This document shows positions 320 to 27,897 of a DNA stretch of 40,429 bases, in pieces; within the stretch, counting starts at the first letter, position 1; each line of letters starts with the position of its first letter. The translations under genes and the position numbers were made by a program. Source of the stretch: Armatimonadota bacterium (GTDB lineage: Bacteria; Armatimonadota; UBA5829; DTLH01). The notes under the pieces were generated by a model. It ran no database searches. It saw nothing but the letters and a program-made list of their open reading frames with translations, and was not told where the DNA came from. The stretch spans positions 1 through 40,429 of the forward strand of contig JBBRAE010000025.1 in assembly GCA_038207085.1 (NCBI GenBank), written 5' to 3'.

Positions 320-1174
320 ATGAAACTGCAAAGAGTGCTGGCAGCGTTTGTGGTCGCGTTGGCAGTCGGTGCAGGTGCTGCGGAGTCACCCAAGGTGTCT
401 CTGCAGGCCGAACAGACGCCGGTTAAGGATGTTATGGCGGAGATCTCCAAACAGGTTGGTCTCCAGATCTTTTGTGAGTCGGACGTGCAGGGAGCCGTGA
501 GCGGGTCGTTTGCCGCGATGGAGCTCGAAAAGTTTTTCGACACCGTCACTGCGGGAGGCAAGCTCTCGTGGCAGAAGCTTTACCTGCCAGTTACCCCTGA
601 AAAGAAACCCACACTCGAAGACATAAAGGCGCGGATCAAGGCGATCAAGGCGATCGGCGAGCGCTCGATCGTCGTCTACGACCCCAAGACCAAGGTGCAG
701 ACAGCCTATGTCATCGGGCCAGTGGAGTCTTCCAAGATCATCCCTGAGTCGCTTGGCATGCAGACGTTCTACCTGATAAGCGCGGTCAAGACCCAAGCTC
801 CGGCCACGAAACTGGCCGATGCCTCCGCGCCCGGTCAGGTGGAGCCGATCGACCCCAAGGTCGTCGAGCAGTTCCAGTCGATGCAGATGGAACGCATCGG
901 GATGCTGAACGCGCTGAAGCCCGAGCAGCGGGCCAAACTCCTTCAGCAGGAGATGGTAAGCGAGATGTCGCTTGATCCCACAACCCGCGCGGCGGTTATG
1001 AAGGCCCAGTTTGACGCGCGCAGAAGCATGACTCCAGAGATGCAGCAGCAGTACCGCGACTCGATGCGGGAGGTCATGCAGTCTGTCCGCCAGATGGACC
1101 CAAGCATTGGCAATATGCGAGGCCCAGGTGGAGGCGGCCGCGGCGGTAACAGAGGCCAGAACCAAGGCCAGTAG
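320..1174 (+). CDS. Secreted protein with N-terminal STN-like (secretin/TonB short N-terminal) domain
   Basis: Signal peptide MKLQRVLAAFVVALAVGAGA, then VSLQAEQTPVKDVMAEISKQVGLQIF...VSGSF (STN-like), a helical Q/M-rich C-terminus and a Gly-rich tail. RBS-like ggaagga upstream. Confidence 0.65.
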   Translation: MKLQRVLAAFVVALAVGAGAAESPKVSLQAEQTPVKDVMAEISKQVGLQIFCESDVQGAVSGSFAAMELEKFFDTVTAGGKLSWQKLYLPVTPEKKPTLEDIKARIKAIKAIGERSIVVYDPKTKVQTAYVIGPVESSKIIPESLGMQTFYLISAVKTQAPATKLADASAPGQVEPIDPKVVEQFQSMQMERIGMLNALKPEQRAKLLQQEMVSEMSLDPTTRAAVMKAQFDARRSMTPEMQQQYRDSMREVMQSVRQMDPSIGNMRGPGGGGRGGNRGQNQGQ

Positions 1175-1189
1175 CACCGTACATAAGTT

Positions 1190-1220
1190 AAGGGCGAGTC
1201 ACGAGGGGGCTCGCCCTTTT
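1190..1220 (+). terminator. Intrinsic terminator
   Basis: aagggcgagtc...ggctcgccctt hairpin followed by T run, 15 nt after the stop at 1174. Confidence 0.75.
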
Positions 1221-1268
1221 GTAAGATCAGGGGTTATTCTCTTCAGTCTTCCACTTTGACTTCTACCT

Positions 1269-1296
1269 AATTAAAGGGGACAAATTAAAGGGGACA
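1269..1296. repeat. Perfect 14-bp tandem duplication (aattaaaggggaca x2)
   Basis: Read directly at 1269-1282 and 1283-1296. Confidence 0.85.
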
Positions 1297-1379
1297 GACA
1301 CCTTTTCGTGTCTTCGTGTGGCAAACGGCGGGGAGGCTTGACCGGGCGCGAGACCTCTCTCGCACCCGACCATGTTCTA

Positions 1380-1685
1380 TCAGGCCATATTGACGCCAGC
1401 GGTGATAAACACGTAGGCGGCTACGTATACCAAAATAGCGGCGCGGGTGGCTTGCCGGGCGAAATGGGGGTTGCTCCGGCCATACCACTCGGTGACAACG
1501 ACAAACGGCAGGAAGCTGAGTACCTTGACTGCCGCAAAACAGGCTGCGCTGTGCTTCAGGCATACAGCCATAAGAGGGTTCTGTTCGGTGGCGACACCGT
1601 GGGCTGTGAGGATCAGCGTGCTGATCATATCAGCCAAACAGACTACTATCAGAACAATGCTTTCGTTGCTTAAGAGTCGTCTCAC
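1380..1685 (-). CDS. Small membrane protein, DUF5658-like
   Basis: LADMISTL...ATEQNPLM...FAAVK pattern with three hydrophobic helices. GTG start at 1685 preceded by aaagga. Confidence 0.7.
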   Translation of the reverse strand: MRRLLSNESIVLIVVCLADMISTLILTAHGVATEQNPLMAVCLKHSAACFAAVKVLSFLPFVVVTEWYGRSNPHFARQATRAAILVYVAAYVFITAGVNMA

Positions 1686-1852
1686 CGGTGTTTCCTTTCT
1701 ATGCAGGTATCCATAACTATACTCTTTCAAGAAGCGTGCCGTACGCACAGGTTGCTATACCTGATTGTTGGGTTGATTTAGCGCCCTCTTGGTTTTGAAG
1801 CCTGCCAGCTTGGGTAATACGTTTTGACTTAGTCTTGCACGGTGGGCATTTG

Positions 1853-3301
1853 ATGCGGGTTCTTATAATCAACACAAATCGTGAACGGTCGCCTCACACG
1901 CTGGTTCCGCTTGGGGCATGTCTTGTGGCGTCTGCGGTCCGAGCGGCCGGGCACGAGGTGAGGTTTGTCGACCTTACGTTCGACGGCTCGCACCGGTCCG
2001 TGGTCGCTCAGGCTGTGAGAGATTTTCGGCCACGGGTAGTTGGGCTGTCGATCCGCAACATCGACAACTGCGACTATCTCGACCCAAGATCGCTTCTGCC
2101 TGAAGTGGCCGCAGTGGCCGACGAGTGCCGTAGGGCAGGGGCTCAGATAATAGCCGTCGGCGGACCAGCCGTAACCACCTCGCCGGGCGCGATTCTCCGC
2201 TACGTGGGGGCCGATTACGCGGTCGTCGGCGAAGGGGAAGTCGCCATGCCTGGTCTGCTGCGCGCCATCGAAACCGGCAGCGATCCCATGTGCGTTTCCG
2301 GGATTGCCACAGTCGACGGCGAATGGGTGGTCGCCTCGCCTCCGGAGTCGATCCACGACCTCTCGGCGCTCCCCGACCCAACATTTCCCGACTGGCTTGA
2401 CCTCGGGGCCTACCAGCGCTACGATGCGGCGATGCCGGTGCAGACCAAGCGCGGCTGCCCGTTCCGCTGCGCGTACTGCCCGTATCCCGCGATCGAAGGT
2501 GAAGGCATCAGGCTTCGAGACCCCGAAAGTGTCGCGGCTGATGTCGCGCGGGCCCGCAGGCTGGGGTTTCGCTCGGTCGAGTTCGTCGACAGTGTCTTTA
2601 ACGCCCCAGAGTCCCACGCCATAGACTGCTGTGAGGCGATAGCCCGCCTGCCTGAGAGATTGCCGCTTCAGACCGTGGAGATGAACCCGTCGCGCTGTTC
2701 GGACGACCTCGTGCGGGCGATGAACGCCGCTGGGTTTTCCGCCGTAGGATGCACTGCCGAAAGCGGGTCGGACCGCATGCTCCGGTCGCTCGGCAAGGGC
2801 TTCCAGGTCGATGATCTTTACGCTGCTGCGGCCCGAATGCGAAAGCTCGACGCGCTGAAACTGTGGATATTTATGATCGGCGCGCCCGGTGAGGACGAGT
2901 CGACCGTCGCAGAGACCGTTAAATTCCTGGAAACCGCGCTTGGACCTGACGACCTCGCCTATATCAGCTTCGGCGTGCGCGTTTTGCCAGGGACCGATCT
3001 CTTCTCCCGCGTGGTCGAGGAAGGCGCGATCCCGCCGGACGCCGACCTTTTGCAGCCGACGTTTTATTTTTCGCCGCACATTACCCCCGAGCGCTCGATG
3101 GAGATCATCTCTCGGGGCCGGTTCCCGTCCGACAACATCGTGCAGCTCGGCGACGGCAACAACAAGCTTCTGCCGATCGCTCAGCGCATCGGTCACGCGC
3201 TTGGGATGGAGCCGCCGTACTGGCGATACGCACCGATCTGGAACCGCGCGAGGCACTGCTTCACCCCCAGGCTCCCCTCACGCGAGGGCAGAACGTGCTA
3301 G
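1853..3301 (+). CDS. Cobalamin-binding radical SAM protein (resembles lipid-biosynthesis B12/rSAM family)
   Basis: N-terminal B12 domain (PLG...VVGLSIRNIDN...VGGPA...VVGEGE) and CxxxCxxC motif QTKRGCPFRCAYC, plus FVDSVFN and AESGS. Confidence 0.9.
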   Translation: MRVLIINTNRERSPHTLVPLGACLVASAVRAAGHEVRFVDLTFDGSHRSVVAQAVRDFRPRVVGLSIRNIDNCDYLDPRSLLPEVAAVADECRRAGAQIIAVGGPAVTTSPGAILRYVGADYAVVGEGEVAMPGLLRAIETGSDPMCVSGIATVDGEWVVASPPESIHDLSALPDPTFPDWLDLGAYQRYDAAMPVQTKRGCPFRCAYCPYPAIEGEGIRLRDPESVAADVARARRLGFRSVEFVDSVFNAPESHAIDCCEAIARLPERLPLQTVEMNPSRCSDDLVRAMNAAGFSAVGCTAESGSDRMLRSLGKGFQVDDLYAAAARMRKLDALKLWIFMIGAPGEDESTVAETVKFLETALGPDDLAYISFGVRVLPGTDLFSRVVEEGAIPPDADLLQPTFYFSPHITPERSMEIISRGRFPSDNIVQLGDGNNKLLPIAQRIGHALGMEPPYWRYAPIWNRARHCFTPRLPSREGRTC

Positions 3302-3999
3302 ACCCCGGCCGCCGGCAGGACGTGGAGGAACTCCTCGATATGCCGGATGCGTCGGGATCAGAGCTCAACCGTTCACTTTCAGATCTCGAGCTTGCCAACC
3401 GTCTGTTGGGTGGCAGGCGGGCTGTTGCGCGCCACCTGCTCCCACTTGCTGGTGATGGCGCGACGTTTCTCGATGTCGGCTGCGGAAGCGCCGATATGCT
3501 CCGCTGGCTCTCAGACTTTGCACAAGCCAGGCACGCCAAAATCATTCTCACCGGCATAGACTCGCACTCCGGCGTTGTCGAAATCGCCCATGCCCGCTGC
3601 CGGGACTATCCCAATATCCAAATTGCCGAGGCCAACGCGCTCGCCCTGCCGTTTTGCGACCAAAGCTTCGATGTGGTCTTGTCAAGCACGTTTTTGCATC
3701 ACTTGGACCCAGAGGACGCCGTCCGTGCGATCTCCGAGATGCGTCGGGTCGCCCGCCGTCGCGTCGTGATCTCTGACCTCGTTCGTGGATGGTTGGGCCG
3801 TGTCGGGGTTGTGATCGTCGGGCGGACGCTTTTTGGGAAGATGAGCCGCATTGACGGCTCCCGCTCTTTTCTGCGCGCCTATTCACCCTCCGAGCTTGCG
3901 GACTTGGCCGAGCGCGCTGGGCTTACCGGTGTGCGCGTCTTGGGAGGCGCGGTGCGGATGATCCTGATCTGGGACAGGGAGATATGTGATGAAGTTTAG
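3295..3999 (+). CDS. Class I SAM-dependent methyltransferase
   Basis: Motif I FLDVGCGSAD, LPFCDQSFDVVLSSTFLHH, and N-terminal EELLD...SLSDLELANRLLGG. Overlaps both neighbours. Confidence 0.9.
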   Translation: MLDPGRRQDVEELLDMPDASGSELNRSLSDLELANRLLGGRRAVARHLLPLAGDGATFLDVGCGSADMLRWLSDFAQARHAKIILTGIDSHSGVVEIAHARCRDYPNIQIAEANALALPFCDQSFDVVLSSTFLHHLDPEDAVRAISEMRRVARRRVVISDLVRGWLGRVGVVIVGRTLFGKMSRIDGSRSFLRAYSPSELADLAERAGLTGVRVLGGAVRMILIWDREICDEV

Positions 4000-6887: not shown

Positions 6888-9800
6888 CTAGTTGCTCTCG
6901 GGCTTGTGGCCGCTCTTGAGCTCACGAGCGGCGGTTGCGAGCACTTCGTAGAGCTCAGGCAGACTCTCTGCATCGACTGCTGAGAAGGCGACTCGGATGT
7001 CGCGCTTGCCGTCGGCGATGACTCCCACGCCGTGATGCTCAAGCAGGTGCTTGCGGTAGGTCTCGGCGTCGATTCCCTTTAGCTTCAGACACATGAAGTA
7101 GCCTGCGTTGAAGGGATACGGCTCCCAAAGGTCAGCGTACTCCGGCGAGCGCAGGATCTCTTTGACCTTGTTTGCTCTTGATTCGAGCACCGCGCGCTTT
7201 TCGGCGGTCTCAGACTCGAACGTGTCGCTGTTCATCGCCTTGATGAGAATCGACTGCGCCGGGTGGCTGCAGTTGGAGATCGCGGCACGGATCGCGCCCG
7301 CGAACTTCTTCTCAAGTGCATTGTAGAGCGCGTCCTGGCTCATCGCCGCCTTGGTGCTGAAGGTGAGCATGCCGGTTCTAAAACCCCAGACATACTCTTC
7401 CTTGGTAGGCCCGTCAACCTTTACCGCGAGAATTCTCTCGTGGAGGTCAGCGAGCTTGGCGAACATCGACTCGTCGAGAACGTCCTCATCGTAGAACAGA
7501 CCGAAGTAGGCGTCATCGGCCACGACGATCAGGTCGCAGCCGTTTTCGGCAGCCTCTTTCAAGACAAAGCAGACCTTTTCGGCCTCTTCTTTTCTGATCG
7601 AGTAACCGGTCGGGTTGTTCGGGAAGTTCAGGATGACGATTGTCTTGCCGCTGTCGGTTCGGCTTGCAAGCACCCTTCGCAGCCCTTCGGCGTTGAAGTT
7701 GCCCTCCATATCAAAGAACGGGTAGACAGCGAGCTGCGCCTGAAGCCTTACACCAAAGATCAGCTCGTAGTTCTCCCAGAACTTGTCGGGAAGCAGGATC
7801 ATATCACCCTTTTCGACGAACATATCGCCTACGAGGCTCAGGGCATGCGTGACGCCGCTTGTAACGATCGGCATCGAGAAGCTCTTTGCCGCAAGCGACG
7901 GGTTCTTGGCGATGAGCTGCTCGCGCCACTTCTTGCGCAGATCGGCGCGACCCGTCGCAGGGGCGTATGTGAGCGCCTCAACTGCCGTTAGCCCGCCGAG
8001 GTAGTTCATAACGCTCTGCAGGAACATCGGCTTGCCGTTTTCCTTGGCGATACCGATGGTCGCATCGAACTTCTTAGCTTTATCTTTGGCCTCAGCGCTC
8101 TGAGAAAGAATCCCCTTGGGGAAGAAGAGTCTGCGCCCGAGTTCGGAGAACATCTCAAAGACGTAGGGGTTCTCTCGCTCGATGACCTCGTTCAGCTCTG
8201 CTGCGAGCGGGCGAACGTCGGTGCCCGATTTGAGCATCGTGATCGGCGCTTTCAGTCTGAGCTTGAGCGACTCGTGCTGCTCCCAGAGTTCCTTCGGGAA
8301 CCTGTCACCGAACGTTTCGAAGAACGTCGCGGTCTGATTTGTCTCTTCACGCCAGTCCATTGGGTTGACAGAGAACAGCTTGTCGAGCGCATCCTGCGAG
8401 ACATCTAGCCCGGTAAGGTCGAGGCTGTCGGTTGTCGGCAGATACCCGATGGGGCTGATCTGTGCGTCGGCCTCGCCACGGCAGCGGTCGAGAATCCACT
8501 CGATCACCCGCAGGTTCTCGCCGAACCCCGGCCACAGGAAGTTGCCGTCCTCGTCCTGCCTGAACCAGTTGACATGGAAGATCTTGGGCGGGTTGCTCAT
8601 TCTCTTGCCCATGTCGATCCAGTGCTTGAAGTAGTCTCCCATGTGGTAGCCGCAGAACGGGAGCATCGCCATCGGGTCGCGCCTGACCTGGCCGATCTTG
8701 CCGAACGCCGCAGCGGTCATCTCGCTTCCCATTGTAGCGCCGACGTATACGCCGTGCTCCCAGTCAAACGCTTCGTAAACGAGCGGAGCAAGCTGCGCTC
8801 GGCGTCCTCCAAAGACGATCGCCGAGATCGGCACGCCGTGATGGTGCTCGGTCCTAAACGAGTGCGACGGGCACTGGGTAAGCGGCGAGGTGAAGCGGCT
8901 GTTTGCGTGCGCCCCGACGACCTTCTTGCCGTCAGCATCGACCATTCCCGGCTTCCAGGGGTTGCCCTTCCAGTCTGTAGCTTCTGCGGGCGGCTCGTCG
9001 TCGTGACCTTCCCACCAGACTGTTCCGTCGTCTTTCAAGACGACGTTGGTGTAGATCGTATTCTTGGCGATGGTCATCATCATGTTGGGGTTGCTCTTCA
9101 TATTGGTCCCTGGAGCAACGCCAAAGAACCCCTTTTCGGGGTTGATGGCCCAAAGCCTGCCGTCGGTGTCGATTCTCATCCATGCGATGTCGTCGCCGAC
9201 GGTCCAAATTCTATAGCCTTTAACCTTCAAGCCCTCGGGCGGAAGGAGCATAGCGAGGTTTGTCTTGCCGCATGCGCTCGGGAACGCCGCCGCGACGTAT
9301 TCGATGTGTCCCGACGGGTCTTCCACGCCCATAATGAGCATATGTTCCGCGAGCCACCCTTCGCGCTTGCCGAGGTAGCTTGCGATTCTGAGCGCGAGGC
9401 ACTTCTTGCCAAGGAGCACGTTTCCACCGTAGCCAGAGCCGACGCTCCAGATGGTGTTGTCCTCCGGGAAGTGCATAATCAGCCTTCGGTCGATGTCGAG
9501 ATCGGCCTTGCTGTGCAGACACCTGGTAAACTGTCCGCCTGCGCCGAGCTGCTTCAGCACCGACGAGCCGACGTGGGTCATAATCCTCATATTGAGGACG
9601 ACGTAGATGCTGTCGGTGAGCTCGACGCCGATCTTGCTGAATGGTGAGCCGACGGGGCCCATCGAGAAGGGGATGACATACATCGTCCGGCCCTTCATGG
9701 AGCCGTCGAAGAAATCCCGGGCGCGGCGATAGCCTTCTTCGGGGCTCATCCAGTTGTTGGTGGGTCCTGCGTCCTCTGGGAGAGTCGTGCAGATGTAGGT

Positions 9801-10019
9801 CAGGTTCTCTGTGCGGGCGACGTCGTTCTCCGCTGTGCGGTGAAAGATGCAACCCGGCAGTGTCTCTTCGTTGAGGGGTTCAACCTCTCCTGAGGCGATA
9901 GCTTCGGCGGTGAGCCGTTCTCTCTCTTCCTCAGACCCGTCGACCCAGACAAGTTTCTCCGGCTGGCAAAGCGCCGCCATCTGGTCGACCCATTCCTGTA
10001 GTTCACGATGCTGAATCAC
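6888..10019 (-). CDS. pckG: Fusion: GTP-dependent phosphoenolpyruvate carboxykinase (aa about 1-590) plus class I/II PLP aminotransferase (aa about 605-1043)
   Basis: PEPCK motifs GSGYGGNVLLGKKC, FPSACGKTN, VGDDIAW, NSRF, RRDPMAMLPF, WPGFGEN. Aminotransferase motifs NFPNNPTG, DDAYFG, DGPTKEEYVWGFRTG, IRVAFS. One uninterrupted frame; GTG start with ggagga RBS. Confidence 0.93.
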   Translation of the reverse strand: MIQHRELQEWVDQMAALCQPEKLVWVDGSEEERERLTAEAIASGEVEPLNEETLPGCIFHRTAENDVARTENLTYICTTLPEDAGPTNNWMSPEEGYRRARDFFDGSMKGRTMYVIPFSMGPVGSPFSKIGVELTDSIYVVLNMRIMTHVGSSVLKQLGAGGQFTRCLHSKADLDIDRRLIMHFPEDNTIWSVGSGYGGNVLLGKKCLALRIASYLGKREGWLAEHMLIMGVEDPSGHIEYVAAAFPSACGKTNLAMLLPPEGLKVKGYRIWTVGDDIAWMRIDTDGRLWAINPEKGFFGVAPGTNMKSNPNMMMTIAKNTIYTNVVLKDDGTVWWEGHDDEPPAEATDWKGNPWKPGMVDADGKKVVGAHANSRFTSPLTQCPSHSFRTEHHHGVPISAIVFGGRRAQLAPLVYEAFDWEHGVYVGATMGSEMTAAAFGKIGQVRRDPMAMLPFCGYHMGDYFKHWIDMGKRMSNPPKIFHVNWFRQDEDGNFLWPGFGENLRVIEWILDRCRGEADAQISPIGYLPTTDSLDLTGLDVSQDALDKLFSVNPMDWREETNQTATFFETFGDRFPKELWEQHESLKLRLKAPITMLKSGTDVRPLAAELNEVIERENPYVFEMFSELGRRLFFPKGILSQSAEAKDKAKKFDATIGIAKENGKPMFLQSVMNYLGGLTAVEALTYAPATGRADLRKKWREQLIAKNPSLAAKSFSMPIVTSGVTHALSLVGDMFVEKGDMILLPDKFWENYELIFGVRLQAQLAVYPFFDMEGNFNAEGLRRVLASRTDSGKTIVILNFPNNPTGYSIRKEEAEKVCFVLKEAAENGCDLIVVADDAYFGLFYDEDVLDESMFAKLADLHERILAVKVDGPTKEEYVWGFRTGMLTFSTKAAMSQDALYNALEKKFAGAIRAAISNCSHPAQSILIKAMNSDTFESETAEKRAVLESRANKVKEILRSPEYADLWEPYPFNAGYFMCLKLKGIDAETYRKHLLEHHGVGVIADGKRDIRVAFSAVDAESLPELYEVLATAARELKSGHKPESN

Positions 10020-10213: not shown

Positions 10214-11836
10214 TCAATCGGAAATTTTGGCCTGTTCCATACGAAGCCGGGTGGAGGACTGCTTCGTAGTGTGTGTGACTGGCGGTCTGGTCAGTTTGTA
10301 GACGTGGTAAGCTGCACTCTTGTTGTTGAGCAACCTCAGTCGCCACCCTTTCTGCTGCAAACCGTGCGCAATACCGAATATCCTCTCCCAGTTCGCCAAG
10401 ACCACCAGGTGATCGGCCTTGGAACGAAGCGCGATCTCGTTTAGGGCATCCCATCGTCGGGTGCCAGAGGAAGGCAATGTCAGCCGAAGATGGCTGTCGA
10501 CGCTTGACGGTGTTTTTAGTCCGACCATGTCAACCATCCGAAACTTGGTGGCATAGGCGATGTACCCTGCGTCGTGGATGAGTAGGACACTGTTCTTTGG
10601 TAGAGTGGCGTTGCACCCACTCGCGACCCCCGCGAGTTCCTCTTGCGTGAACGCTACGCCCTTGTTATACTCTTTCCAGCGGTACGGTAGATAATACAAA
10701 GACTGGCATGTTCCAAGCACGAGCAGCATTGCCGCAACTACGCGCAGGGGTAGGGAGCGGCTGGCAAAGAGCAGCATCGCGCCATAGAGCACAAATGGCA
10801 ATATAATGTAGAGATATCTCTGTTCGTAGTGGGCAAGCGCTCCCGGAAACTGCGCCCAGTAACAGCCAAGTAGAATGACGCAGAACAATACCGCCGCTCT
10901 GCCGGTTCTTGATAATATAAGGCCGACTGCTGCAGCGCTGAGTATCCCGATCTTTAGAGCAAATGCTTCCAGTTGGAATGTGACCCACTGTGTCTTGATG
11001 CTAATCGGAAGATGTGTTTCGGCGAAGAAGGCCCGTTTGGCGGCAATGGTGGACGGAAAAGGCATTCCAGTGCTTACCCAATACCACACAAACCACGGAG
11101 CGGTCGCGGCTGCGGCCAGCGCCATGTCGATTGCACAAGCCGTGAGCGCGGTTCGGCGGGTAGGAGATGACTTCAAGTGCCTGAGGCATCGCAGTGACAT
11201 AATAATCGCAGATAATGCCACAAGTTCCGGTCTGATGAACGGAATTGTCCCGCACAGGATTGGCAAAACCCTGTTTGCCGGTTTGGCTCTGTCTGAGGAG
11301 TAGACCAGCATCCAAGTCAGTGCGGCGAGAGCAAGACCGGTTTCGAGCCCATTCATGAGCTGGTGCGGAGTCAGTGCGACTGTGACTCCAGCGATCACAA
11401 ACAGAGCTGCGACAGGTGTCGACGCGCGATATAGGAACGCCAGGCGCGACAAGCCAAGAACGTACGCTATGATCGAAAGCCACGCAGCCGTATGCAGCGC
11501 CCACAACGGCTTCATAACGGTCATTAGCATCGTAACCAGGCCCAAATGGACCGCGCTGGTCGCTCCACAAAGTGCCGTGGATCCTGCATAGTTGGGATCA
11601 TGTCCCCACCATATCACCTGTGCGTTGTGCAGTGTGATGTATGCGTCATCTACCGGAAAGACTGGAATGGTTTTGTTGGTGGTGAACCAGACCGTAAGCG
11701 TAGCCATCAGCGTCGCAATATAGAACCATCGCTTCTGCATATCTGGCGCTGGTGACAGCAGCCCCAACTGATGGCGCTTTGAAGGTGATACACTCTCACC
11801 ACTGTAAGCACGTTCTGTTTGAATTGTAGTGGACAT
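10214..11836 (-). CDS. Polytopic membrane protein, GT-C-like glycosyltransferase
   Basis: DDAYI after the first TM helix, GLET, RPE, QRY, many TM helices, and a soluble C-terminal domain with DAGYIAY and DMVGL. Confidence 0.65.
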   Translation of the reverse strand: MSTTIQTERAYSGESVSPSKRHQLGLLSPAPDMQKRWFYIATLMATLTVWFTTNKTIPVFPVDDAYITLHNAQVIWWGHDPNYAGSTALCGATSAVHLGLVTMLMTVMKPLWALHTAAWLSIIAYVLGLSRLAFLYRASTPVAALFVIAGVTVALTPHQLMNGLETGLALAALTWMLVYSSDRAKPANRVLPILCGTIPFIRPELVALSAIIMSLRCLRHLKSSPTRRTALTACAIDMALAAAATAPWFVWYWVSTGMPFPSTIAAKRAFFAETHLPISIKTQWVTFQLEAFALKIGILSAAAVGLILSRTGRAAVLFCVILLGCYWAQFPGALAHYEQRYLYIILPFVLYGAMLLFASRSLPLRVVAAMLLVLGTCQSLYYLPYRWKEYNKGVAFTQEELAGVASGCNATLPKNSVLLIHDAGYIAYATKFRMVDMVGLKTPSSVDSHLRLTLPSSGTRRWDALNEIALRSKADHLVVLANWERIFGIAHGLQQKGWRLRLLNNKSAAYHVYKLTRPPVTHTTKQSSTRLRMEQAKISD

Positions 11837-11954
11837 TGGCAACCCCCTACGTCATTATGGCGTTCGGATGACGCTATCTGTAGGGTTGTTATGGCACTAT
11901 ATAGCTTTGCTGCCGCGTCCCAACATCTGCAACTAGAGAAATGCCCCTTGTAGA

Positions 11955-20483: not shown

Positions 20484-20619
20484 CTCTTTGTCCTTTGTCA
20501 CCCCCAACCTGACGAATGCGCAGTTATCCCAATTGGCAGCCTAACGTTTTACCCCATCTCAACCGTATAACATAATTGGTGAGATTATGGTAAAATGCCT
20601 CCAGGAGGTTAGGTCACTT

Positions 20620-22713
20620 ATGAGAAGAACTGTGCTTTTGTTGTCAGCCGTCGCGGCGCTCGTCGCGTCCGCTGTTGTTGCCGCGCCGGGGCTTTCCGAG
20701 CAGGTTGTCCCGAAGATGTTGGGTGTGAGCGTTGCGCTCGACTCGTCTGTGGACAGAGTCGCCGAGTCCGGCGCAGGCTTCGCCCGGACCGAGGTTCGCT
20801 GGTCTGACCTCGAAAAAGAGAAGGGCGTCTACGACTTTTCCGCGCTCGACTCGCTCTTTACAAAACTTGAATCCAAAGACATCCGCGCGATCATCGTCAT
20901 TTCGGGGGGAAACCCTCTTTACGAAAGCGGCAGGCCGCCTCACACCCGAGAGGGCCGCACCGCGTTTGCCGCAATGGCCGCAGCTGCCGCCGCAAAGCAC
21001 AAAGGCGCCATCTGGCAGGTCTGGAACGGGCCGAACCAGGCTACATCCTGGGCTCCCAAGCCAAACGCGCAGGAGTACGTCGAGCTTGTGCAGGCGACTT
21101 CGATTGCGATCAAAGCCGCCGACCCAAGTGCGCTCGTCATCGGTCTTTCATCTTGGGTGAACGACCTCGCCTTTGCCAGCAGATGCTTTGAGCTTGGTCT
21201 CCTGAAGTCCATCGACGCAGTTGCGGTTGAAGGGGGTGGGGCCGGGCTTCCCGCTCTCGGTTACGGACCGCTGCGCGAGCTGATTGCCAAGCACGCGGGC
21301 AGGGGCAGGACCTATCCTTTGGTGGTCAACCACCAGCTGGCTCAGAGCCCCGCGTTTGTGCAGACCGCGGGTCAGTTGACAGACATCGCGGACGGAGTAG
21401 CCGTCTCGATCTGGCCTGGCGCGGCCGATTCCCTCGGCGATCTCACCGGCTGCAAGCTTGTCCGCAAGCTCGGCGGCAGGTTGGAAGACTCGATTTTGCT
21501 ATTCAAAGGAAACGACGGCTACCGCATCGCCGCATGGACCACAGGCTCCGAGCGCGAAGTGACCATACCCGCCGAAGGCGACGCCTCCAAGCTGAATCTC
21601 ACAGGCACACCGGCGATTGTTCGCTCGGGCTCGGGGGAGAGGTTCGCTCTTGAAGAGGCCGTGGATATCTCAACCGGCATCGACCACCGCTGGAGGCTCC
21701 AGGATGAAGTCAACGTCGCGATTGTGAACCCGCTTTCCCGCACGTTGAAGGGCGAAGCTTCCATCACCGTTCCCGGCATGCCCAAGCCTATGAGTAGGAA
21801 GTTCAGTGTCGGCGGTGGCAAGAGCGAGCTTGTTCACTTTGACCCGATAGTCCTCTGGGACGGCAGGGCGTCGGTGGTCGCTGAGGTCATCGTCAAGTTC
21901 GACGGCGTCGCAACTCCGATCGCCCGCACTGTCGACCTCGGCACGTCGCGGCGCATCTCAGCGCGCCCGAGTTGCCCGATCGAGCAGATAATGGAGTTTC
22001 AGGTCAGCAACCCCTCCGGCGTCCGCGTGAAGGGCAGGCTGAGGCTGACCGACATCAAGGGCCTTGAGATCAAGAACCCGATGGTCAAGTTCGACGCTGA
22101 CGGAAGCGCCATTGTCGCGCTTTCCCTCGATGAGCCCGCGCGCCGCGAGTTCTCGTTTGGCTACGAGTTGCTCGATTCGCTCGGCAAGGTAGTCTTCCGC
22201 GCTCCCGTTAGGAACTACACGATCATCGAGACGTTCCAGGGAGCGTCAAACGCCATCCCGCCCGCGGCCTACGATTTCGTCTCCTTCGGGGACAGCAATA
22301 CAAAGGCAACGAGCGACGCCTTCTGCATGCTCCACGACAGCCAGTATACGTCGCTCCAGCGCATGTCGGTGCTGCGACTGCGCTACTCGTGCGCTTCCGG
22401 CAATCGCCACTTCAAGCTTGACCCAAAGACGGACCTGACCCTCCAGGGCAAGCCGATTGAGCTCGGAATGTGGCTTCAGGGCGATGGCAACGGCACCAAG
22501 CTGACCTGCCGCCTGACCGACGCCTCGGGCAAAGCAATCCAGCCCGCCGGTTTCGTGATGGACACCAAGCAGTGGCGTTACAAGACGATACAGATCGACA
22601 CCGCAGGCTCCGAAGCGCCCTACAAGCTCGAAACCCTCGCGCTGATCGACCCCCAGGGCGCCGCCGCAATCGGCAGCATCTACCTCGGGCCGATCATGGT
22701 GGTTTCGGAGTAG
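20620..22713 (+). CDS. Secreted clan GH-A (GH39/GH5-like) glycoside hydrolase homologue with C-terminal beta-sandwich/CBM-like domains, probably non-catalytic
   Basis: Signal peptide after aggagg RBS, RTEVRWSDLEKEKGVYDFS, WQVWNGPN in place of WNEPN, AIKAADPSA, and CBM-like LGMWLQGDGNG. Confidence 0.7.
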   Translation: MRRTVLLLSAVAALVASAVVAAPGLSEQVVPKMLGVSVALDSSVDRVAESGAGFARTEVRWSDLEKEKGVYDFSALDSLFTKLESKDIRAIIVISGGNPLYESGRPPHTREGRTAFAAMAAAAAAKHKGAIWQVWNGPNQATSWAPKPNAQEYVELVQATSIAIKAADPSALVIGLSSWVNDLAFASRCFELGLLKSIDAVAVEGGGAGLPALGYGPLRELIAKHAGRGRTYPLVVNHQLAQSPAFVQTAGQLTDIADGVAVSIWPGAADSLGDLTGCKLVRKLGGRLEDSILLFKGNDGYRIAAWTTGSEREVTIPAEGDASKLNLTGTPAIVRSGSGERFALEEAVDISTGIDHRWRLQDEVNVAIVNPLSRTLKGEASITVPGMPKPMSRKFSVGGGKSELVHFDPIVLWDGRASVVAEVIVKFDGVATPIARTVDLGTSRRISARPSCPIEQIMEFQVSNPSGVRVKGRLRLTDIKGLEIKNPMVKFDADGSAIVALSLDEPARREFSFGYELLDSLGKVVFRAPVRNYTIIETFQGASNAIPPAAYDFVSFGDSNTKATSDAFCMLHDSQYTSLQRMSVLRLRYSCASGNRHFKLDPKTDLTLQGKPIELGMWLQGDGNGTKLTCRLTDASGKAIQPAGFVMDTKQWRYKTIQIDTAGSEAPYKLETLALIDPQGAAAIGSIYLGPIMVVSE

Positions 22714-22903
22714 CTATTAGCTGTTAGCACAAGAGCTTCTGCTGGATGGTGGGCTGCAGACTCCTGTCCAATATCTAAAAATAACAACGGGTGCAGTGAA
22801 CTCTCTCACTGCACCCGTTCTGCATTTCTTGTAACTACTGACGGTTAACTACTGGTAGCTAATAGCTAACTGCTAATAGCTAAAGGCTAAAGCCTAACAG
22901 CTA
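22711..22903. repeat. Inverted blocks of heptamer repeats (TAGCTAT/TAGCTGT-like) flanking a terminator
   Basis: tagctattagctgttagc at 22711-22728 and gctaatagctaactgctaatagctaaaggctaaagcctaacagcta at 22858-22903. Confidence 0.7.
22786..22819. terminator. 14-bp perfect hairpin between convergent genes
   Basis: aacgggtgcagtga-N6-tcactgcacccgtt. Confidence 0.75.
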
Positions 22904-24085
22904 CCCCTTAACCTGCCGATACATCCGAGCCTGCAGCCCGTGCACCGCGACCATTCCTTCCATCTTGGACTGATCGAAGGTCTGGGAGTCGAAGCTTGCG
23001 AGGTCCTCGTTGTAGAGCGCGAACTTGCTTGCGCGGCCCATCACCTTGACGCTTCCCTTGAAGAATCTTAGCTTGACCGAGCCCGTCACGCGCTCCTGGA
23101 TTTTGTTGATGAACGCCTCAAGGTCGTCTTTGAACGGGTCGAACCACAGGCCCTGGTAGGCAAGCTTGCCCCATTCCTGGTCTACGAGCGACTTGAACCG
23201 CAGTTCTTCCATCGTGCAGACCAGCGACTCAAGCGCCTTGTGCGCCATAATGATCGGAACCGCCGCCGGGCACTCGTAGTTCTCGCGAACCTTGAGGCCG
23301 ATCATCCGGTCTTCCATAATGTCGACGCGCCCGACGCCGTTTTCGCCTGCGATGTCGTGCATTCGGGTGATCATCTCAACGGGTGAGAGCCTGTCGCCGT
23401 TCACCGACACCGGCACGCCGTCCTCAAAGCCGAGGTCGACCTCGGTCGAGGTGTTCGGGGCGTCTTCAGGGCTCTTGGTCCATATAAAGATCTCCTCCGG
23501 AGGCATAAAGTCGGGCTCTTCGAGCCGTCCGCCTTCGATTGAGCGGCCCCACATATTCTCATCGATAGACCAAATCTTGTCCGTGCTCTGGCTGATCGGG
23601 ATGCCCTTCTGTTTTGCGTACTCGATCTCCCAGGTGCGGGTCATGGTCTTCTCGCGCATCGGCGCGATGATCGGCATCTCGGGCATAAGCGCGCGCATGA
23701 CGAACTCGATCCTGAACTGGTCGTTGCCCTTGCCCGTGCAGCCGTGGCAGAACGCGTCTCCACTGACTTTCTTGGCGATCTCAACGGCCTTCAGACCGAT
23801 CAGAGGCCTGGCGATCGACGTGCTGATCGGGTAACCCTGATAGTCGCCGTTTGCCTTGATCGCCGGGAAGATAAAGTCCTCTGCGAACTCCTTCTTGGCG
23901 TCGATCGTATAATGCTCGGTCCCAAGCGCCTTGGCTTTCGCCTCGGCCTCCCGAACGTCCGATGCCGGCTGCCCAACGTCGACGGTGCAGGTGACCACAT
24001 GGTCAAACCCATAGTCCTCCCGCATCATCGGAATGGCGACCGACGTATCAAGCCCGCCGGAATAGACGAGCACGACTGTTTTCAT
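22901..24085 (-). CDS. argG: Argininosuccinate synthase
   Basis: YSGGLDTS, ARPLI, HGCTGKGNDQFR, SIDENMWGRSIEGG, GLKVRENYECPAA. aggagg RBS. Confidence 0.97.
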   Translation of the reverse strand: MKTVVLVYSGGLDTSVAIPMMREDYGFDHVVTCTVDVGQPASDVREAEAKAKALGTEHYTIDAKKEFAEDFIFPAIKANGDYQGYPISTSIARPLIGLKAVEIAKKVSGDAFCHGCTGKGNDQFRIEFVMRALMPEMPIIAPMREKTMTRTWEIEYAKQKGIPISQSTDKIWSIDENMWGRSIEGGRLEEPDFMPPEEIFIWTKSPEDAPNTSTEVDLGFEDGVPVSVNGDRLSPVEMITRMHDIAGENGVGRVDIMEDRMIGLKVRENYECPAAVPIIMAHKALESLVCTMEELRFKSLVDQEWGKLAYQGLWFDPFKDDLEAFINKIQERVTGSVKLRFFKGSVKVMGRASKFALYNEDLASFDSQTFDQSKMEGMVAVHGLQARMYRQVKG

Positions 24086-24120
24086 CAACTTTCCTCCTGG
24101 TTATTATGTTACGTAAACTT

Positions 24121-24209: not shown

Positions 24210-25676
24210 TCAGACTATCAAACTCATTATCGCCTTCTGAACATGCAGGCGATTCTCTGCCTCATCCAGCACAAACGACTGCGGCCCGTCCAGCACCTCG
24301 TCGGTGATCTCGTCGCCTCGATGCGCGGGCAGACAATGCAGCACAATCGCATCAGACTTGGCCTTGGCGACCAGCTCTGAATTGACCTGATAAGCGGCGA
24401 ACACCTTCTTGCGCTCGGCGGTTTCGTCTTCCTGGCCCATCGATGCCCAGACGTCGGTGTAGATCACGTCGGCGTCCTCGACGGCCTCGGACGGATCACG
24501 CACGATCTCGATCGTCGACCCCGTGCTCGCCGCGATTTCACGGGCGCGCTCGACGACTTTTGCGTCCGGATCATACCCCTCAGGGCAGGCCAGCGCAAAT
24601 CGCATTCCGACTTTGGCGGCAAGGAGCATCAGGCTCTGCGCGACGTTGTTGCCGTCGCCGATGAACGCGAGCTTCAGCCCGCGCAGCCCGTGCTTGTTCT
24701 CCTGAATGGTCAGGAAGTCGGCGAGCGCCTGGCAGGGGTGCTCAAGGTCTGAGAGCCCGTTTATGACAGGGATCGACGCGTTGTTCGCAAGCCCAGTGAC
24801 GGTGCCGTGCGAGAAGACGCGCGCCATAATGACATCACACCAGCGCGACAGGTTGCGGCTGACGTCGGCGACCGACTCACGCTGCCCGAGCTGGATGTCA
24901 GACGGCGCAAGGTAGATCGCATGCCCGCCGAGCTGGGTCATCCCCACCTCAAACGTCACGCGGGTCCGAAGCGACGGCTTCTCGAAGATCATCGCAAGCG
25001 TCTGGCCTGCGAGTATGCTCTGATGCGCCGTCGGGTCCTTCTTGCCGGTCGCCTTAAGCAGTGTCGCGACTGAGAGCACCAGATCGATCTCTTCTTTTGA
25101 CAGGTCATCGATCGACATAATGCTGCGCCCGCGCAGGCGATGGGTGGTTTTGAGCGCGACCAAGGTCAGCGGGTGCTGCGCCACGTCGCCTCCGATAAGG
25201 TTACGCACGACCTCGCGGCTCTTCTCTCGGATATCCTGGTCGCGACCCGACTGAAGCTTGCGCACGGCGTTTCGCGCCTTGTCCAAGCTTGCGCCTGAGG
25301 TTGTCAGCACCTTGCCGGCGGTCCCTTCCTTCTCGCGGATCAGGCCAAGGAGCAGATGCTCGGTCCCGATGTAGTTGTTATCGAGGAACCGCGCCTCTTC
25401 GTAGGCCCGGTCGATAACCTTCTTCGATCGGGGCGAAAGCTGCATGTCCTGCCCGATCTTGCCGTTGCCCGGAGGCGTCTGGCCCTTGACTGTTTCTCTA
25501 AGCTGCTCCGGGTCGATCTTCAAATCCTCGAGGGTGATCGTCGCGATGCTGTTCTTCTCGCGCAGCAGACCAAGGAGCAGGTGTTCGGAGAGCACATTGT
25601 TCTCTCCGAGTTTGCCCGCTTCCTCCTGGGCGAAGAAGATGACCCTTTTTGCTCTCTCAGTGAACTTTTCCCACAT
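24210..25676 (-). CDS. argF: Fusion: ClpC-type N-terminal repeat (Clp_N) domain plus ornithine carbamoyltransferase
   Basis: aa 1-143 carry FTERAKRV...SEHLLLGLLRE...SPRSKKVI...GTEHLLLGLIRE. From about aa 180 the OTC motifs are FEKPSLRTR, NGLSDLEHPCQ, GDGNN, TDVWASMG, HCLPAHRG and AENRLH. It sits between argD and argG. Confidence 0.95.
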   Translation of the reverse strand: MWEKFTERAKRVIFFAQEEAGKLGENNVLSEHLLLGLLREKNSIATITLEDLKIDPEQLRETVKGQTPPGNGKIGQDMQLSPRSKKVIDRAYEEARFLDNNYIGTEHLLLGLIREKEGTAGKVLTTSGASLDKARNAVRKLQSGRDQDIREKSREVVRNLIGGDVAQHPLTLVALKTTHRLRGRSIMSIDDLSKEEIDLVLSVATLLKATGKKDPTAHQSILAGQTLAMIFEKPSLRTRVTFEVGMTQLGGHAIYLAPSDIQLGQRESVADVSRNLSRWCDVIMARVFSHGTVTGLANNASIPVINGLSDLEHPCQALADFLTIQENKHGLRGLKLAFIGDGNNVAQSLMLLAAKVGMRFALACPEGYDPDAKVVERAREIAASTGSTIEIVRDPSEAVEDADVIYTDVWASMGQEDETAERKKVFAAYQVNSELVAKAKSDAIVLHCLPAHRGDEITDEVLDGPQSFVLDEAENRLHVQKAIMSLIV

Positions 25677-25678
25677 GG

Positions 25679-26908
25679 CTATTTTCCTTCTCCGCCGCCC
25701 ATCCCCGCGGCGGCAATTGCTCCGTTAAGAATTCCGATGGCTTTGTCCACCTCCGCCCGCGTTACCGTGAGCGGCGGGATAAGCCTGATTATGTGATCGC
25801 CGATCCCATTGATGATCAGTCCGTTATCCATACAAATCTCAGCGATGTTCTTCACGACCGCCGCTTCAAACTGCACCGCGATCATAAGCCCAAGGCCCCT
25901 GACTTCCAGAATCTGCCCCGAGTACTTTTCTTGAAGCTTCCTGAGCTCTCCCATGAAATACTCGCCGGTGTCGCGGGCGTTTTCGACCAAACCCTCTTCG
26001 TGGATCGTCGAAAGCGTCGCAATCGCCGCCGCGGAGGCAAGTGGGTTGCCTCCGAAAGTCGCCGCATGGTCTCCGGGCTCGAACACGGTAGCCGCCTCGC
26101 CCCTTGCAAGACATGCGCCGATCGGGAACCCGCCGCCGAGCGTCTTCGCAAGCGTCATAACGTCGGGAATCACGCCGAAGTGCTCGTAAGCGAACAGCTT
26201 TCCAGTCCTTCCAAGCCCCGTCTGAACCTCATCGAATATGAGAAGCGCGCCGTCGGAGTCGCAGGCTGTCCTTGCAAACTGCAGGTAATCCAGGCTCGCT
26301 GGATGCACTCCGCTTTCGCCCTGAACAGGCTCAAGGATCACCGCGCAGGTGTTCTCGTTGATCGCCTCTTCAAGCGCCTCTATGTCGTTATACGGCACAT
26401 ACTTGAACCCCGGCACAAGCGGCTCGAACGCCTTCTGATACTTGTGCTGCCCCGTCGCGGTGATCGAGCCCATTGTCCTTCCGTGGAAAGACTTGAGCGC
26501 CGTCACGATCTCGAACTTCGAGTCCGAGGTCCTCTTGCCGAACTTGCGGGCGAGCTTGATCGCCGCCTCGTTGGCTTCGGTGCCGGAGCTGCAGAAAAAC
26601 GCCTTGTCAAACTCCGACCACTCCACGAGCATCTTCGCGAGTTGCGGCTGCTCTTCGGTGTAGTAAAGGTTCGACGTGTGCATCAGCTTGGCGGCCTGCT
26701 TTGCGATAGCATCGACGAGTTTGGGGTGGCAGTGCCCGAGCCCGTTGACGGCGATTCCCGACACGAAGTCAAGATACTCCTTGCCGTCGGCGTCCCAGAC
26801 CTTGGTCCCTTCGCCCTTGATGATCGCAAGCGGCAGCCTGCCATAGGTGGTCATTACATATTTCTTATCTAACTCAACGATCTCTTTGTAAGTCATGTTT
26901 GTATCCAT
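25679..26908 (-). CDS. argD: Acetylornithine aminotransferase
   Basis: YLDFVSGIAVNGLGH, SGTEANE, SFHGRT, EPVQGESG, FDEVQTG, LAKTLGGG, TFGGNP. Start is ATG 26908 or 26896. Confidence 0.93.
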   Translation of the reverse strand: MDTNMTYKEIVELDKKYVMTTYGRLPLAIIKGEGTKVWDADGKEYLDFVSGIAVNGLGHCHPKLVDAIAKQAAKLMHTSNLYYTEEQPQLAKMLVEWSEFDKAFFCSSGTEANEAAIKLARKFGKRTSDSKFEIVTALKSFHGRTMGSITATGQHKYQKAFEPLVPGFKYVPYNDIEALEEAINENTCAVILEPVQGESGVHPASLDYLQFARTACDSDGALLIFDEVQTGLGRTGKLFAYEHFGVIPDVMTLAKTLGGGFPIGACLARGEAATVFEPGDHAATFGGNPLASAAAIATLSTIHEEGLVENARDTGEYFMGELRKLQEKYSGQILEVRGLGLMIAVQFEAAVVKNIAEICMDNGLIINGIGDHIIRLIPPLTVTRAEVDKAIGILNGAIAAAGMGGGEGK

Positions 26909-26945
26909 TCCAAATAAAGCTATCAGCGAAATCGCCATCCCTGAT

Positions 26946-27184
26946 CGTGCGCGATATTTATCGCGCACGCAAAGAAGAACAAGGGAGCTTGGCTCCCGGT
27001 GAATCGACTTAAGCCCATTCCCCGGACTAAAGTCCTAATTCTTCTATCGTTCGTCCGGATTTGCAATCCGGGACGTCTGGGCCGAATAGGCATCTGTGAT
27101 GCCGGTAGATTGGGCACGGTCGAAAGAGCGGGATCACAGATGCCTCTCTTGCCAACAGGCCCCGGATTGCAAATCCGGGCCAAC
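26946..27184. repeat. Cluster of REP-like palindromes upstream of argD
   Basis: cgtgcgcgata-tt-tatcgcgcacg at 26946-26969. Outer inverted pair ccggatttgcaatccgg / ccggattgcaaatccgg (27049-27075, 27158-27184) encloses the inner pair ggcatctgtgatgcc / gggatcacagatgcc. Confidence 0.7.
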
Positions 27185-27237: not shown

Positions 27238-27897
27238 CTAACCTCTATCCCCTGAATCGCCCGGGCCAGGCGTTGTACGCCGCCGTTTCTTGAGCTTGGG
27301 GAAGACCTCTTCGAGCCCCTCGGTCAGGTCATAGACAAACGACGCAAGGTCTCTGTCCTGTTCCTTCAGGTTTCGCAGTTCAAGCAGCAGAATGTCTTTG
27401 AACTGCTGAAGCTGACGCGTTTGGGACTCTCTGATATCCTGGACTTCCGAGCGAATCTCCTCAAGCGCGGTCTTGACCTCGGGCGTTGGCATAGAGAAAT
27501 CTTTCGCGCGCTCCATATCCATTCCGGCGTCAGAGATGAACCGGGTCAGTGCTGATTCGCTGACGAGCCTGCGCACTCCTTCAGGAAAGCGCACCTGGAT
27601 GGAATCGAGTTCGCCACTTTGGAGCAGTCGTACCATCGCGCCTTCGGAGAGCCCAAGCCGCATGCGCGCATCTTCAGAGGAGACCGTGTAGTCGCCGACC
27701 GGCTCGGGGAAGACCACGGGTTCGAGCTCCACCCGAAACTCTTTTTTCCCCGCAGCAGGCACGAGTCCGAGCGCTTTCCACTCGTCGTGAAGCCGTGCGA
27801 TCCCCGCAGGAAGTTTTTCCTCCTGGGGAGCCGCTATAGTGTCCTCCTGACTCTCGGTCAGGTCAAGGTTTTCTGGTCTGATTTCTTCTTGATCCAT
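27238..27897 (-). CDS. Hypothetical protein with Xis/MerR-like HTH and C-terminal coiled coil
   Basis: VSSEDARMRLGLSEGAMVRLLQSGELDSIQ...RRLVSESALTRF followed by a heptad-rich helix. Confidence 0.6.
   Translation of the reverse strand: MDQEEIRPENLDLTESQEDTIAAPQEEKLPAGIARLHDEWKALGLVPAAGKKEFRVELEPVVFPEPVGDYTVSSEDARMRLGLSEGAMVRLLQSGELDSIQVRFPEGVRRLVSESALTRFISDAGMDMERAKDFSMPTPEVKTALEEIRSEVQDIRESQTRQLQQFKDILLLELRNLKEQDRDLASFVYDLTEGLEEVFPKLKKRRRTTPGPGDSGDRG

Follow-up and report, generated by a model that had tools for sequence, protein, structure and literature searches.

The window analysed here is a stretch of 40,429 nucleotides (nt) on contig JBBRAE010000025.1 (assembly GCA_038207085.1) of an Armatimonadota bacterium, and the subject of this study is argF, which lies between argD and argG in an arginine biosynthesis locus of that window. 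The predicted product of argF joins an ornithine carbamoyltransferase (OTC) to an N-terminal domain (NTD) of the type found in the protease ATPase ClpC, a domain associated with the binding of phospho-arginine (pArg). ClpC is known to recognize pArg as a mark for degradation, and more recent work shows that the ClpC2 repressor responds to it as a signal.

Results

An OTC with a ClpC-type N-domain in an arginine operon

Direct reading of the window gives argF as one stop-free frame of 488 codons with an ATG start (Table 1). The TAG stop of argD occupies positions 25679-25681 and the ATG of argF lies at 25676, 2 nt further on; from this spacing and a Shine-Dalgarno-like stretch within the end of argD, translation of argF is putatively coupled to that of argD. 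A hairpin after argG likely marks the end of the argD-argF-argG unit. Two stretches of the argF product match the Pfam family Clp_N (95.6 bits against a cut-off of 20.7, E 1.9e-27). None of the AAA families of Pfam matches the product, and the NCBIfam models of ClpB, ClpK, ClpG and ClpA align solely to about amino acids (aa) 5-156, far under their cut-offs, so that no AAA+ module follows the N-domain. The product carries a Clp N-domain without AAA+ modules and does not belong to the Clp/Hsp100 ATPases. The initial annotation of this DNA had described an open reading frame (ORF) beginning right after the argD stop and comprising two Clp_N repeats, a linker of about 35 residues and an OTC, with no AAA+ module; the sequence and the Pfam and NCBIfam matches bear out each of these elements, with a linker of about 38 residues.

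The same annotation had assigned the N-domain to ClpC, and the structural relatives agree with this. Its best solved sequence relative is the Bacillus subtilis ClpC NTD with pArg (5hbn_A, E 3.9e-34), and 32 of the 33 best sequences in the Protein Data Bank (PDB) are named ClpC or ClpC1, the remaining one being called "ATP-dependent protease (heat shock protein)". The ClpC-pArg structure was reportedly first described by Trentini et al. in 2016. Fold matches for aa 2-147 include the C-terminal domain of ClpC2 (8b9o_A; Z 20.7, root mean square deviation [rmsd] 1.6), the ClpB NTD (1khy; Z 19.9) and ClpC (3pxg_A; Z 19.4, 45% identity), and the identity to the NTD of the ClpC encoded in the same genome is 58%. 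Score, the presence of two repeats, fold and closest relatives all place the domain among the Clp_N double-repeat domains of ClpC type. The four motifs singled out earlier (FTER, SEH, SPR and GTEH) are present as F5-T6-E7-R8, S30-E31-H32, S81-P82-R83 and G104-T105-E106-H107; in the alignment to 5hbn_A, E31 and E106 fall under E32 and E106 of ClpC, and T6 falls under T7.

The AlphaFold2 (AF2) model of the full protein has a mean predicted local distance difference test score (pLDDT) of 91.9 and a predicted template modelling score (pTM) of 0.68. Its pLDDT is 86-98 over aa 1-140 and below 50 at linker residues 154-164, and the predicted arrangement of the domains relative to each other is not confidently fixed, although each of the two domains is itself modeled with high confidence. 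In an alignment of 87 sequences of fused homologues, the linker columns have no majority residue in the consensus; both the length and the sequence of the linker differ between lineages, and such motifs as it has are lineage specific. A predicted complex of aa 1-150 with aa 178-488 gave no answer (score 0.00) and is evidence neither way, and the ESM Atlas offered no usable match.

The C-terminal 305 residues match the OTC equivalog TIGR00658 at 416.9 bits (cut-off 280.85) and NF001986 at 436.1 bits (cut-off 306), both in NCBIfam. This part contains S235-L-R-T-R239 and H313-P-C-Q316, instances of the carbamoyl-phosphate motifs SxRTR and HPxQ, together with D408..S412-M-G414 and H447-C-L-P450, instances of the ornithine motifs DxxxSMG and HCLP. 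The motif residues are invariant across the 87-sequence alignment. The fold matches the OTC of P. furiosus (1a1s; Z 44.1, rmsd 1.5 over 307 residues, 53% identity), and Foldseek aligns the AF2 model to the same structure with a TMt of 0.94. Known anabolic OTCs (1a1s; M. tuberculosis ArgF, 7nnv) share the motifs, the equivalog score and the fold with the argF product; among the fold matches listed, no solved OTC covers the N-terminal 145 residues, and their alignments start at model residue 165 at the earliest. A search of the 83 contigs of the genome for OTCace found argF as the sole OTC; one further match, a 327-aa frame on contig C50, is presumed to be PyrB. Judged by its sequence, the argF product is an anabolic OTC with the motifs of the family and, as the sole candidate and lying between argD and argG, probably the working OTC of the organism. 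An internal start yielding an OTC-only product is unlikely: M186 is the only nearby methionine, it has no Shine-Dalgarno-like sequence, and it is not conserved in the 87-sequence alignment.

Table 1. Features of the argF locus (window coordinates) and of the clpC locus of the same genome
Feature	Position	Strand	Basis
argF fusion protein: ClpC-type N-domain, linker and OTC	24210..25676	-	ORF, Pfam, NCBIfam
ClpC-type N-terminal domain, aa 1-145	25242..25676	-	Pfam, PDB sequence match, fold match, AF2
Two Clp_N repeats matched	25488-25631 and 25257-25406	-	Pfam
Linker, aa 146-183 (~38 aa)	25128..25241	-	AF2 pLDDT, alignment
OTCace_N, carbamoyl-phosphate-binding domain, aa 184-326	24699..25127	-	Pfam, E 1.4e-47
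OTCace, ornithine-binding domain, aa 333-486	24219..24680	-	Pfam, E 6e-63
Shine-Dalgarno-like GGAGAAGGA, within argD end, 8 nt 5' of argF ATG	25685..25693	-	sequence reading
argD (acetylornithine aminotransferase; Aminotran_3, 427.7 bits), 5' of argF	25679..26968	-	Pfam
argG (argininosuccinate synthase), 3' of argF	22901..24088	-	Pfam
Terminator-like hairpin, 15-bp stem then T run, after argG	22786..22819	-	consensus pattern match only
mcsA-like, mcsB and clpC row	G000 contig C37, locus 942-3573		profile matches

Relatives and spread of the fusion

A protein search in which 8000 candidates were scored against 5.8 billion clusters yielded a list of the 120 best matches, query included. All 120 contain Clp_N and both OTC domains, with lengths of 464-835 aa, and those named by organism all come from metagenome-assembled genomes (MAGs) of Armatimonadota, Armatimonadetes or Chthonomonadaceae; the database label of these fused proteins is plain "ornithine carbamoyltransferase". 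Together with a survey of 75 loci, in 45 of which both parts stand in one frame, and a 2807-nt contig of a public run that crosses the junction (it spans 24700-25900 with 0 differences), the 120 fused relatives rule out a chimeric assembly. The support from that contig is only weakly independent since the run may be the source sample. The probability that the fusion is an artefact, either a chimera or two genes misread as one, is negligible: the metagenome-type assembly of the source genome (3.35 Mb, 83 contigs, 100% complete) is all that speaks for it, against a single frame without stops and fused relatives in many independent assemblies. The doubts raised at the outset, a chimeric junction and a lack of fusions in relatives, have thus not materialized. 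A full-text literature search, whose coverage excludes subscription journals, found no description of a Clp_N-OTC fusion, in keeping with the initial annotation, which knew of no characterized OTC of this architecture.

One peculiarity of metagenome coverage falls within argF. In four metagenome runs, contigs of many other organisms pile up on 47 nt of the window (25332-25378) to a depth of up to ~360. These 47 nt encode the conserved ...GTEHLLLGL... core of Clp N-domains, and the pile-up is cross-mapping, not a feature of argF.

Within the phylum, the full-length query matches 398 of 401 sampled genomes. The best 150 of these 398 matches were tabulated and 251 genomes were left unclassified, so the counts that follow are not prevalence figures: 58 matches are colinear and full length, 3 are partial, 64 are OTC-only in frames of up to 400 aa, and 25 are OTC-only in longer frames. 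The 75 loci scanned for the N-domain (60 fetched with their flanks and 15 others) fall into 45 fusions, 4 that have Clp_N in a neighboring gene and 26 that lack it both in the gene itself and for ~1.6 kb around it. Among 13 long-frame loci, the N-domain is fused in frame in 10 and encoded by an adjacent gene in 2, leaving 1 with none; of the 27 short-frame loci, 25 lack Clp_N over the same range and 2 carry it in a neighboring gene.

No fusion came to light in the samples searched outside the phylum. With the full-length query, 55 of the 401 genomes of the phylum itself reach E <= 1e-125, and 0 of 251 genomes do so in each of three further phyla, those of a Chloroflexia, an Obscuribacterales and an Eremiobacterota MAG; diverged fusions are missed at this threshold, and the result therefore reads as not found in the phyla searched and does not establish absence. 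A contig-wide locus search brought up 80 OTC loci of the ordinary kind in many phyla; its patterns came from the OTC core and its matches began at query residue 146 or beyond, so that it is uninformative about the spread of the fusion.

Variants of the architecture

The number of N-domain copies varies among the 120 best proteins, with one copy in 96, two in 22 and three in 2. In a Pfam scan of 11 relatives, an MshEN domain flanked on either side by an N-domain appears in 1, and the N-terminal part of T2SSE, following the N-domain and preceding the OTC, appears in 3. Carriers of MshEN are P0030 and P0127, and carriers of the T2SSE N-terminal part (its first ~110 positions) are P0052, P0067, P0071 and P0128; like Clp_N, these inserts are N-domains of hexameric ATPases, but of another kind. 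A separate Clp_N gene directly upstream of argF accompanies the fusion in G085, G328, G321, G184 and G074 and replaces it in G222, G001, G017 and G048.

A search of 1.84 billion representatives returned 49,126 matches at E <= 0.001, and 36 of the best 150 were scanned with Pfam. They comprise 9 Clp_N-OTC fusions, 16 Clp_N-only proteins with up to 10 repeats, 1 Clp_N protein with a marginal extra match, 4 in which Clp_N is fused to HAAS, alpha/beta hydrolase, TIR or GerE, and 6 OTCs with other or unrecognized N-terminal parts (Aminotran_3, argininosuccinate-lyase-like, CPSase). Named members of the fusion group are Chthonomonadaceae or Chthonomonadales, and named arrays come from Capsulimonadaceae (Armatimonadota) and Actinoplanes. 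Proteins consisting of tandem ClpC-type N-domains alone (P0125, P0132, P0133, P0135, P0138, P0139, P0197 and others) reach 1762 aa, and AAA-less tandem arrays of 4-10 Clp_N repeats occur in Capsulimonadaceae and in Actinoplanes globisporus. In P0206, P0220, P0269 and P0144, Clp_N arrays are fused to alpha/beta hydrolase, TIR, a GerE helix-turn-helix or HAAS. Other OTC fusions, with arginine-pathway enzymes and found among the representatives closest to the query, are P0161 and P0245 (Aminotran_3-OTC), P0270 (argininosuccinate-lyase-like-OTC) and P0242 (CPSase-OTC, 1905 aa).

The N-domain has been renewed from clpC, multiplied and lost

A tree of the OTC domains of the 75 loci (quick IQ-TREE search) tracks taxonomic families, which indicates that the enzyme has been inherited vertically. 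On this tree the presence or absence of the N-domain takes 15 changes, at least 8 of which are forced by well-supported branches. One case lies within a single genus, in which G270 is fused and G331 is not: the N-terminus of G331 retains the C-terminal motif of the linker, and the ~720 nt for the N-domain are replaced by unrelated sequence, which points to loss of the N-domain.

The fused N-domains are far more diverse than their counterparts in ClpC, with a mean pairwise identity of 57.0% (15 genomes) against 90.8% for the ClpC NTDs of the phylum (13 genomes). Compared with the best of the 13 ClpC NTDs, the fused or adjacent N-domains form a continuous range of identity from 95.8% to 32%, and the spread within a single family runs from 93.8% to 34.5% in f29 and from 81.7% to 36.7% in f27. 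At the upper end of this range, in G199, argF and the organism's own clpC are 90.2% identical over 440 nt, from the start codon to the end of the N-domain only, and the N-domain is 95.8% identical to ClpC at the aa level. In the pair G132/G105, the synonymous divergence (dS) is 1.50 in the N-domain and 0.49 in the OTC part of the same gene. Sequence comparison thus identifies the phylum's own clpC as the source of the N-domain. The range of identity to clpC, the match confined to the N-domain in G199 and the dS contrast in G132/G105 indicate an old fusion whose N-domain has repeatedly been overwritten from clpC or re-acquired, gene conversion and re-fusion being inseparable here. The N-domain has also been duplicated in tandem, split off as a neighboring gene, or lost. 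A single clean origin or clade of the fused N-domains was considered and rejected, as the N-domain tree did not resolve, the ArgF group took 6 changes, and long-branch warnings were raised.

Selection appears to act on the domain. The ratio of nonsynonymous to synonymous divergence (dN/dS) is 0.04-0.42 for the N-domain in 9 of 13 pairs with defined dS and 0.04-0.16 for the OTC part in 12 of 13 pairs, with several dS values near saturation. The domain of family f16 has diverged to ~36-42% identity with ClpC but is 96.6% identical in the pair G277/G139, where dN/dS is 0.04. This conservation and the range of dN/dS argue that the domain is under purifying selection and is not decaying.

Pocket residues, McsB and ArgR

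A study of ClpC (PMC12583610) names E32 and E106 as key residues of the pArg2 and pArg1 pockets of the ClpC NTD and T7, R9 and K85 as residues that anchor the resting state; it also describes MecA as occupying both pockets of the NTD and ClpC as being activated by free pArg and not by free arginine. Among the 120 OTC-proximal domains, T6 is kept in 114, E31 in 117, E106 in 118 and H107 in 120. In 60 copies taken from genomes, including some that are ~30-40% identical to ClpC, T6 is kept in 53 (with Ser in 5 more), E31 in 55, E106 in 54 and H107 in 59.

Clp_N occurs in two genes only of the source genome, argF and an 821-aa ClpC frame on contig C37. Directly upstream of this clpC lie a 126-aa Cys-rich, mcsA-like ORF, whose resemblance to McsA is weak (24 bits), and a 359-aa McsB-type kinase (PF00217, 163.4 bits; the best NCBIfam match, "protein arginine kinase", reaches 273 bits and stays below its 385-bit cut-off). 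Neither the ArgR C-domain nor CtsR was found in the source genome by profile search. An mcsA-like/mcsB/clpC row without a recognizable CtsR constitutes a putative pArg-type system outside Firmicutes. In the phylum, PF00217 was found in 216 of 401 genomes. By class of argF match, the number of genomes with this family is 50 of 58 where the fusion is colinear, 34 of 64 where a short frame lacks the fusion and 18 of 25 where the frame is long; relatives are not independent samples in these counts.

ArgR was found in 10 of the 401 genomes, all of one family. Since ArgR is nearly absent from the phylum, from fused and unfused genomes alike, its absence from the source genome is uninformative. The co-occurrence check on argR proposed in the initial annotation gave an absence in this genome that is unspecific, and the idea that the domain replaces ArgR does not discriminate in a phylum that generally lacks it.

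Other open reading frames in the window

Upstream of argD and on the same strand, a 219-aa ORF (27238-27897, -) has no Pfam match. A 1043-aa ORF (6888-10019, -) encodes an unusual fusion in which a complete GTP-type phosphoenolpyruvate carboxykinase (aa 9-586; PEPCK_N and PEPCK_GTP) precedes a class I/II aminotransferase domain (aa 683-1026). Two further ORFs, of 708 aa (20587-22713, +) and 542 aa (10214-11842, -), match no Pfam family at E <= 1e-4.

Discussion

Clp_N domains outside ATPases are already known from ClpC2 and ClpT, and the OTC described here is an ordinary one; what their fusion adds is a testable link to pArg and an unusual renewal from clpC. The argF N-domain has the same two-repeat fold as the NTD of ClpC and retains the equivalents of E32, E106 and T7. 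In ClpC, however, the NTD is followed by AAA+ modules, an M-domain and a ClpP loop, in place of which argF has an OTC, and the fused copies evolve far faster than the ClpC NTDs. AAA-less Clp_N proteins such as plant ClpT1 (4y0b) resemble argF in carrying Clp_N without an ATPase, although no enzyme is joined to them; in plastids, ClpT controls the assembly of ClpP. ClpC2 of mycobacteria and Streptomyces (8b9o, 8ad9, 9p2p) is, like the argF N-domain, a homologue of the ClpC NTD at work outside an ATPase. It differs in being a small repressor that binds DNA, with a C-terminal Clp_N-like domain and only one conserved pArg site, whereas the Clp_N domain of argF precedes a metabolic enzyme and keeps both half-sites. 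With Clp_N at its N-terminus and an OTC as the remainder, the argF product is not a ClpC2-type repressor. According to PMC13345244, ClpC2, a Clp_N-type domain without ATPase, binds pArg with a Kd of ~5 uM and serves as a sensor and a pArg-responsive repressor, and in mycobacteria pArg can occur without a recognizable McsB.

We tentatively favor a model in which the N-domain is a tethered, multivalent receptor for ligands of the ClpC NTD and couples ArgF to McsB-ClpC. In this model, a copy of the ClpC NTD would hang from the N-terminus of the OTC on a flexible linker of variable sequence, all within a single chain. The tethered domains would use the same pockets to bind pArg marks on proteins and/or adaptors such as McsB, and binding would tie the whereabouts, availability or turnover of ArgF to stress proteolysis by McsB-ClpC. 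OTCs are trimers, and the best fold matches of the OTC part are trimeric or dodecameric OTCs; a trimer would display three receptors, or six or nine with tandem copies. The variable and poorly modeled linker, the pTM of 0.68 and the near-unaltered ClpC NTD in G199 favor a tethered module over rigid allostery, and we would not expect a rigid allosteric switch on the active site. The allosteric feedback considered in the initial annotation, taken as a rigid sensor, is disfavored by the same variable linker and pTM.

Several observations weigh against a receptor for ClpC ligands. Within the SPR motif, R83 survives in no more than 25 of the 60 genome copies. Furthermore, 2 of 2 ClpB NTDs of relatives keep T6, E31, H32, P82, R83, K85, T105, E106 and H107. 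Residues shared with ClpB NTDs are a signature of the fold in this phylum and no marker of a pArg binder, and this control rules out the pocket residues as proof of pArg binding; the half-sites that had been described as retained are indeed there, but they are not diagnostic. PF00217 was not found in 8 of the 58 colinear-fused genomes, and five of these 8 belong to family f10. In f10 the kinase family was found in 0 of 32 genomes, yet these include the five fused ones, among them G199 with its very recent ClpC copy, which rules out a strict dependence of the fusion on mcsB. The proposed link to McsB-type signaling holds only in part: the mcsA-like/mcsB/clpC row of the source genome speaks for it, the kinase was found in 50 of 58 fused against 34 of 64 unfused genomes, and f10 speaks against it. 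The 26 of 75 loci without Clp_N, some of them congeneric with fused ones, show the N-domain to be dispensable. Finally, the receptor model leaves the choice of OTC as the carrier unexplained.

A bolder form of the receptor model seems to us possible but rather unlikely. Under proteotoxic stress, trivalent ArgF would be captured by proteins bearing pArg or by McsB that has phosphorylated itself, and arginine synthesis would be switched via sequestration or ClpCP turnover. The OTC would then be the first known metabolic enzyme wired directly to protein-arginine-phosphorylation signaling, and repeated gene conversion by clpC would hold the reader in step with the receptor of the protease.

It is unlikely that the N-domains act as a decoy or sponge, soaking up ClpC ligands and so protecting or tuning ClpC, with the OTC as an abundant trimeric carrier. 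Candidate ligands are pArg substrates and adaptors, or else phage proteins or natural products that target the ClpC N-domain. A decoy of this kind would fit the refreshment of the domain from the organism's own clpC (up to 95.8% aa and 90% nt identity), the tandem copies (double in 22 and triple in 2 of the 120 proteins), the separate Clp_N genes adjoining argF, the frequent gain and loss, and the existence of AAA-less Clp_N arrays and of Clp_N fused to TIR, hydrolase or GerE. PMC13345244 describes ClpC2 itself as an antibiotic sponge, for cyclomarin and rufomycin. On the other hand, the association with argF is persistent and specific over many families of the phylum, and old copies, with 32-42% identity to ClpC, would hardly mimic it well although they are strongly conserved (96.6% between G277 and G139, dN/dS 0.04). 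In addition, we know of no ClpC-targeting agent for this phylum, which also counts against a decoy.

We consider it quite improbable that the domain is a small-molecule sensor through which free pArg, arginine or the near-isosteric carbamoyl phosphate tunes the OTC in place of ArgR-type control. MshEN domains bind cyclic di-GMP, and the MshEN found at the same position in some relatives suggests that the OTC N-terminus is an attachment place for sensor modules. The location of argF in the arginine operon, the retained pocket residues and the failure to find the ArgR C-domain in the genome, with ArgR in 10 of 401 genomes of the phylum, are also what a sensor would predict, although unfused relatives lack ArgR as well. 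The variable, low-confidence linker and the pTM of 0.68 do not suit such a sensor, nor does the near-unaltered ClpC NTD of G199 (95.8%), which serves here with no change of specificity needed. Free arginine, moreover, is inactive on the ClpC NTD according to PMC12583610.

A ligand-free structural role, in higher-order assembly, solubility or a metabolon with arginine enzymes, is the most doubtful of the functional proposals: it would find a place for the tandem copies, the adjacent split forms and the OTCs fused elsewhere to Aminotran_3, argininosuccinate-lyase-like and CPSase parts, but close relatives often differ by loss of the domain while their OTC parts change little, pocket residues are kept in very diverged copies, and no partner has been identified.

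Whichever of these proposals is correct, the combination of renewal from clpC, quick divergence, tandem amplification and frequent loss is unusual for a domain of a housekeeping enzyme and merits an explanation of its own. The system is a convenient test case, as it offers a soluble enzyme with a simple assay and natural variants with 0, 1, 2 or 3 domains. If the receptor model is true, the presence of a ClpC reader on a core biosynthetic enzyme across much of the phylum would extend pArg signaling to metabolism.

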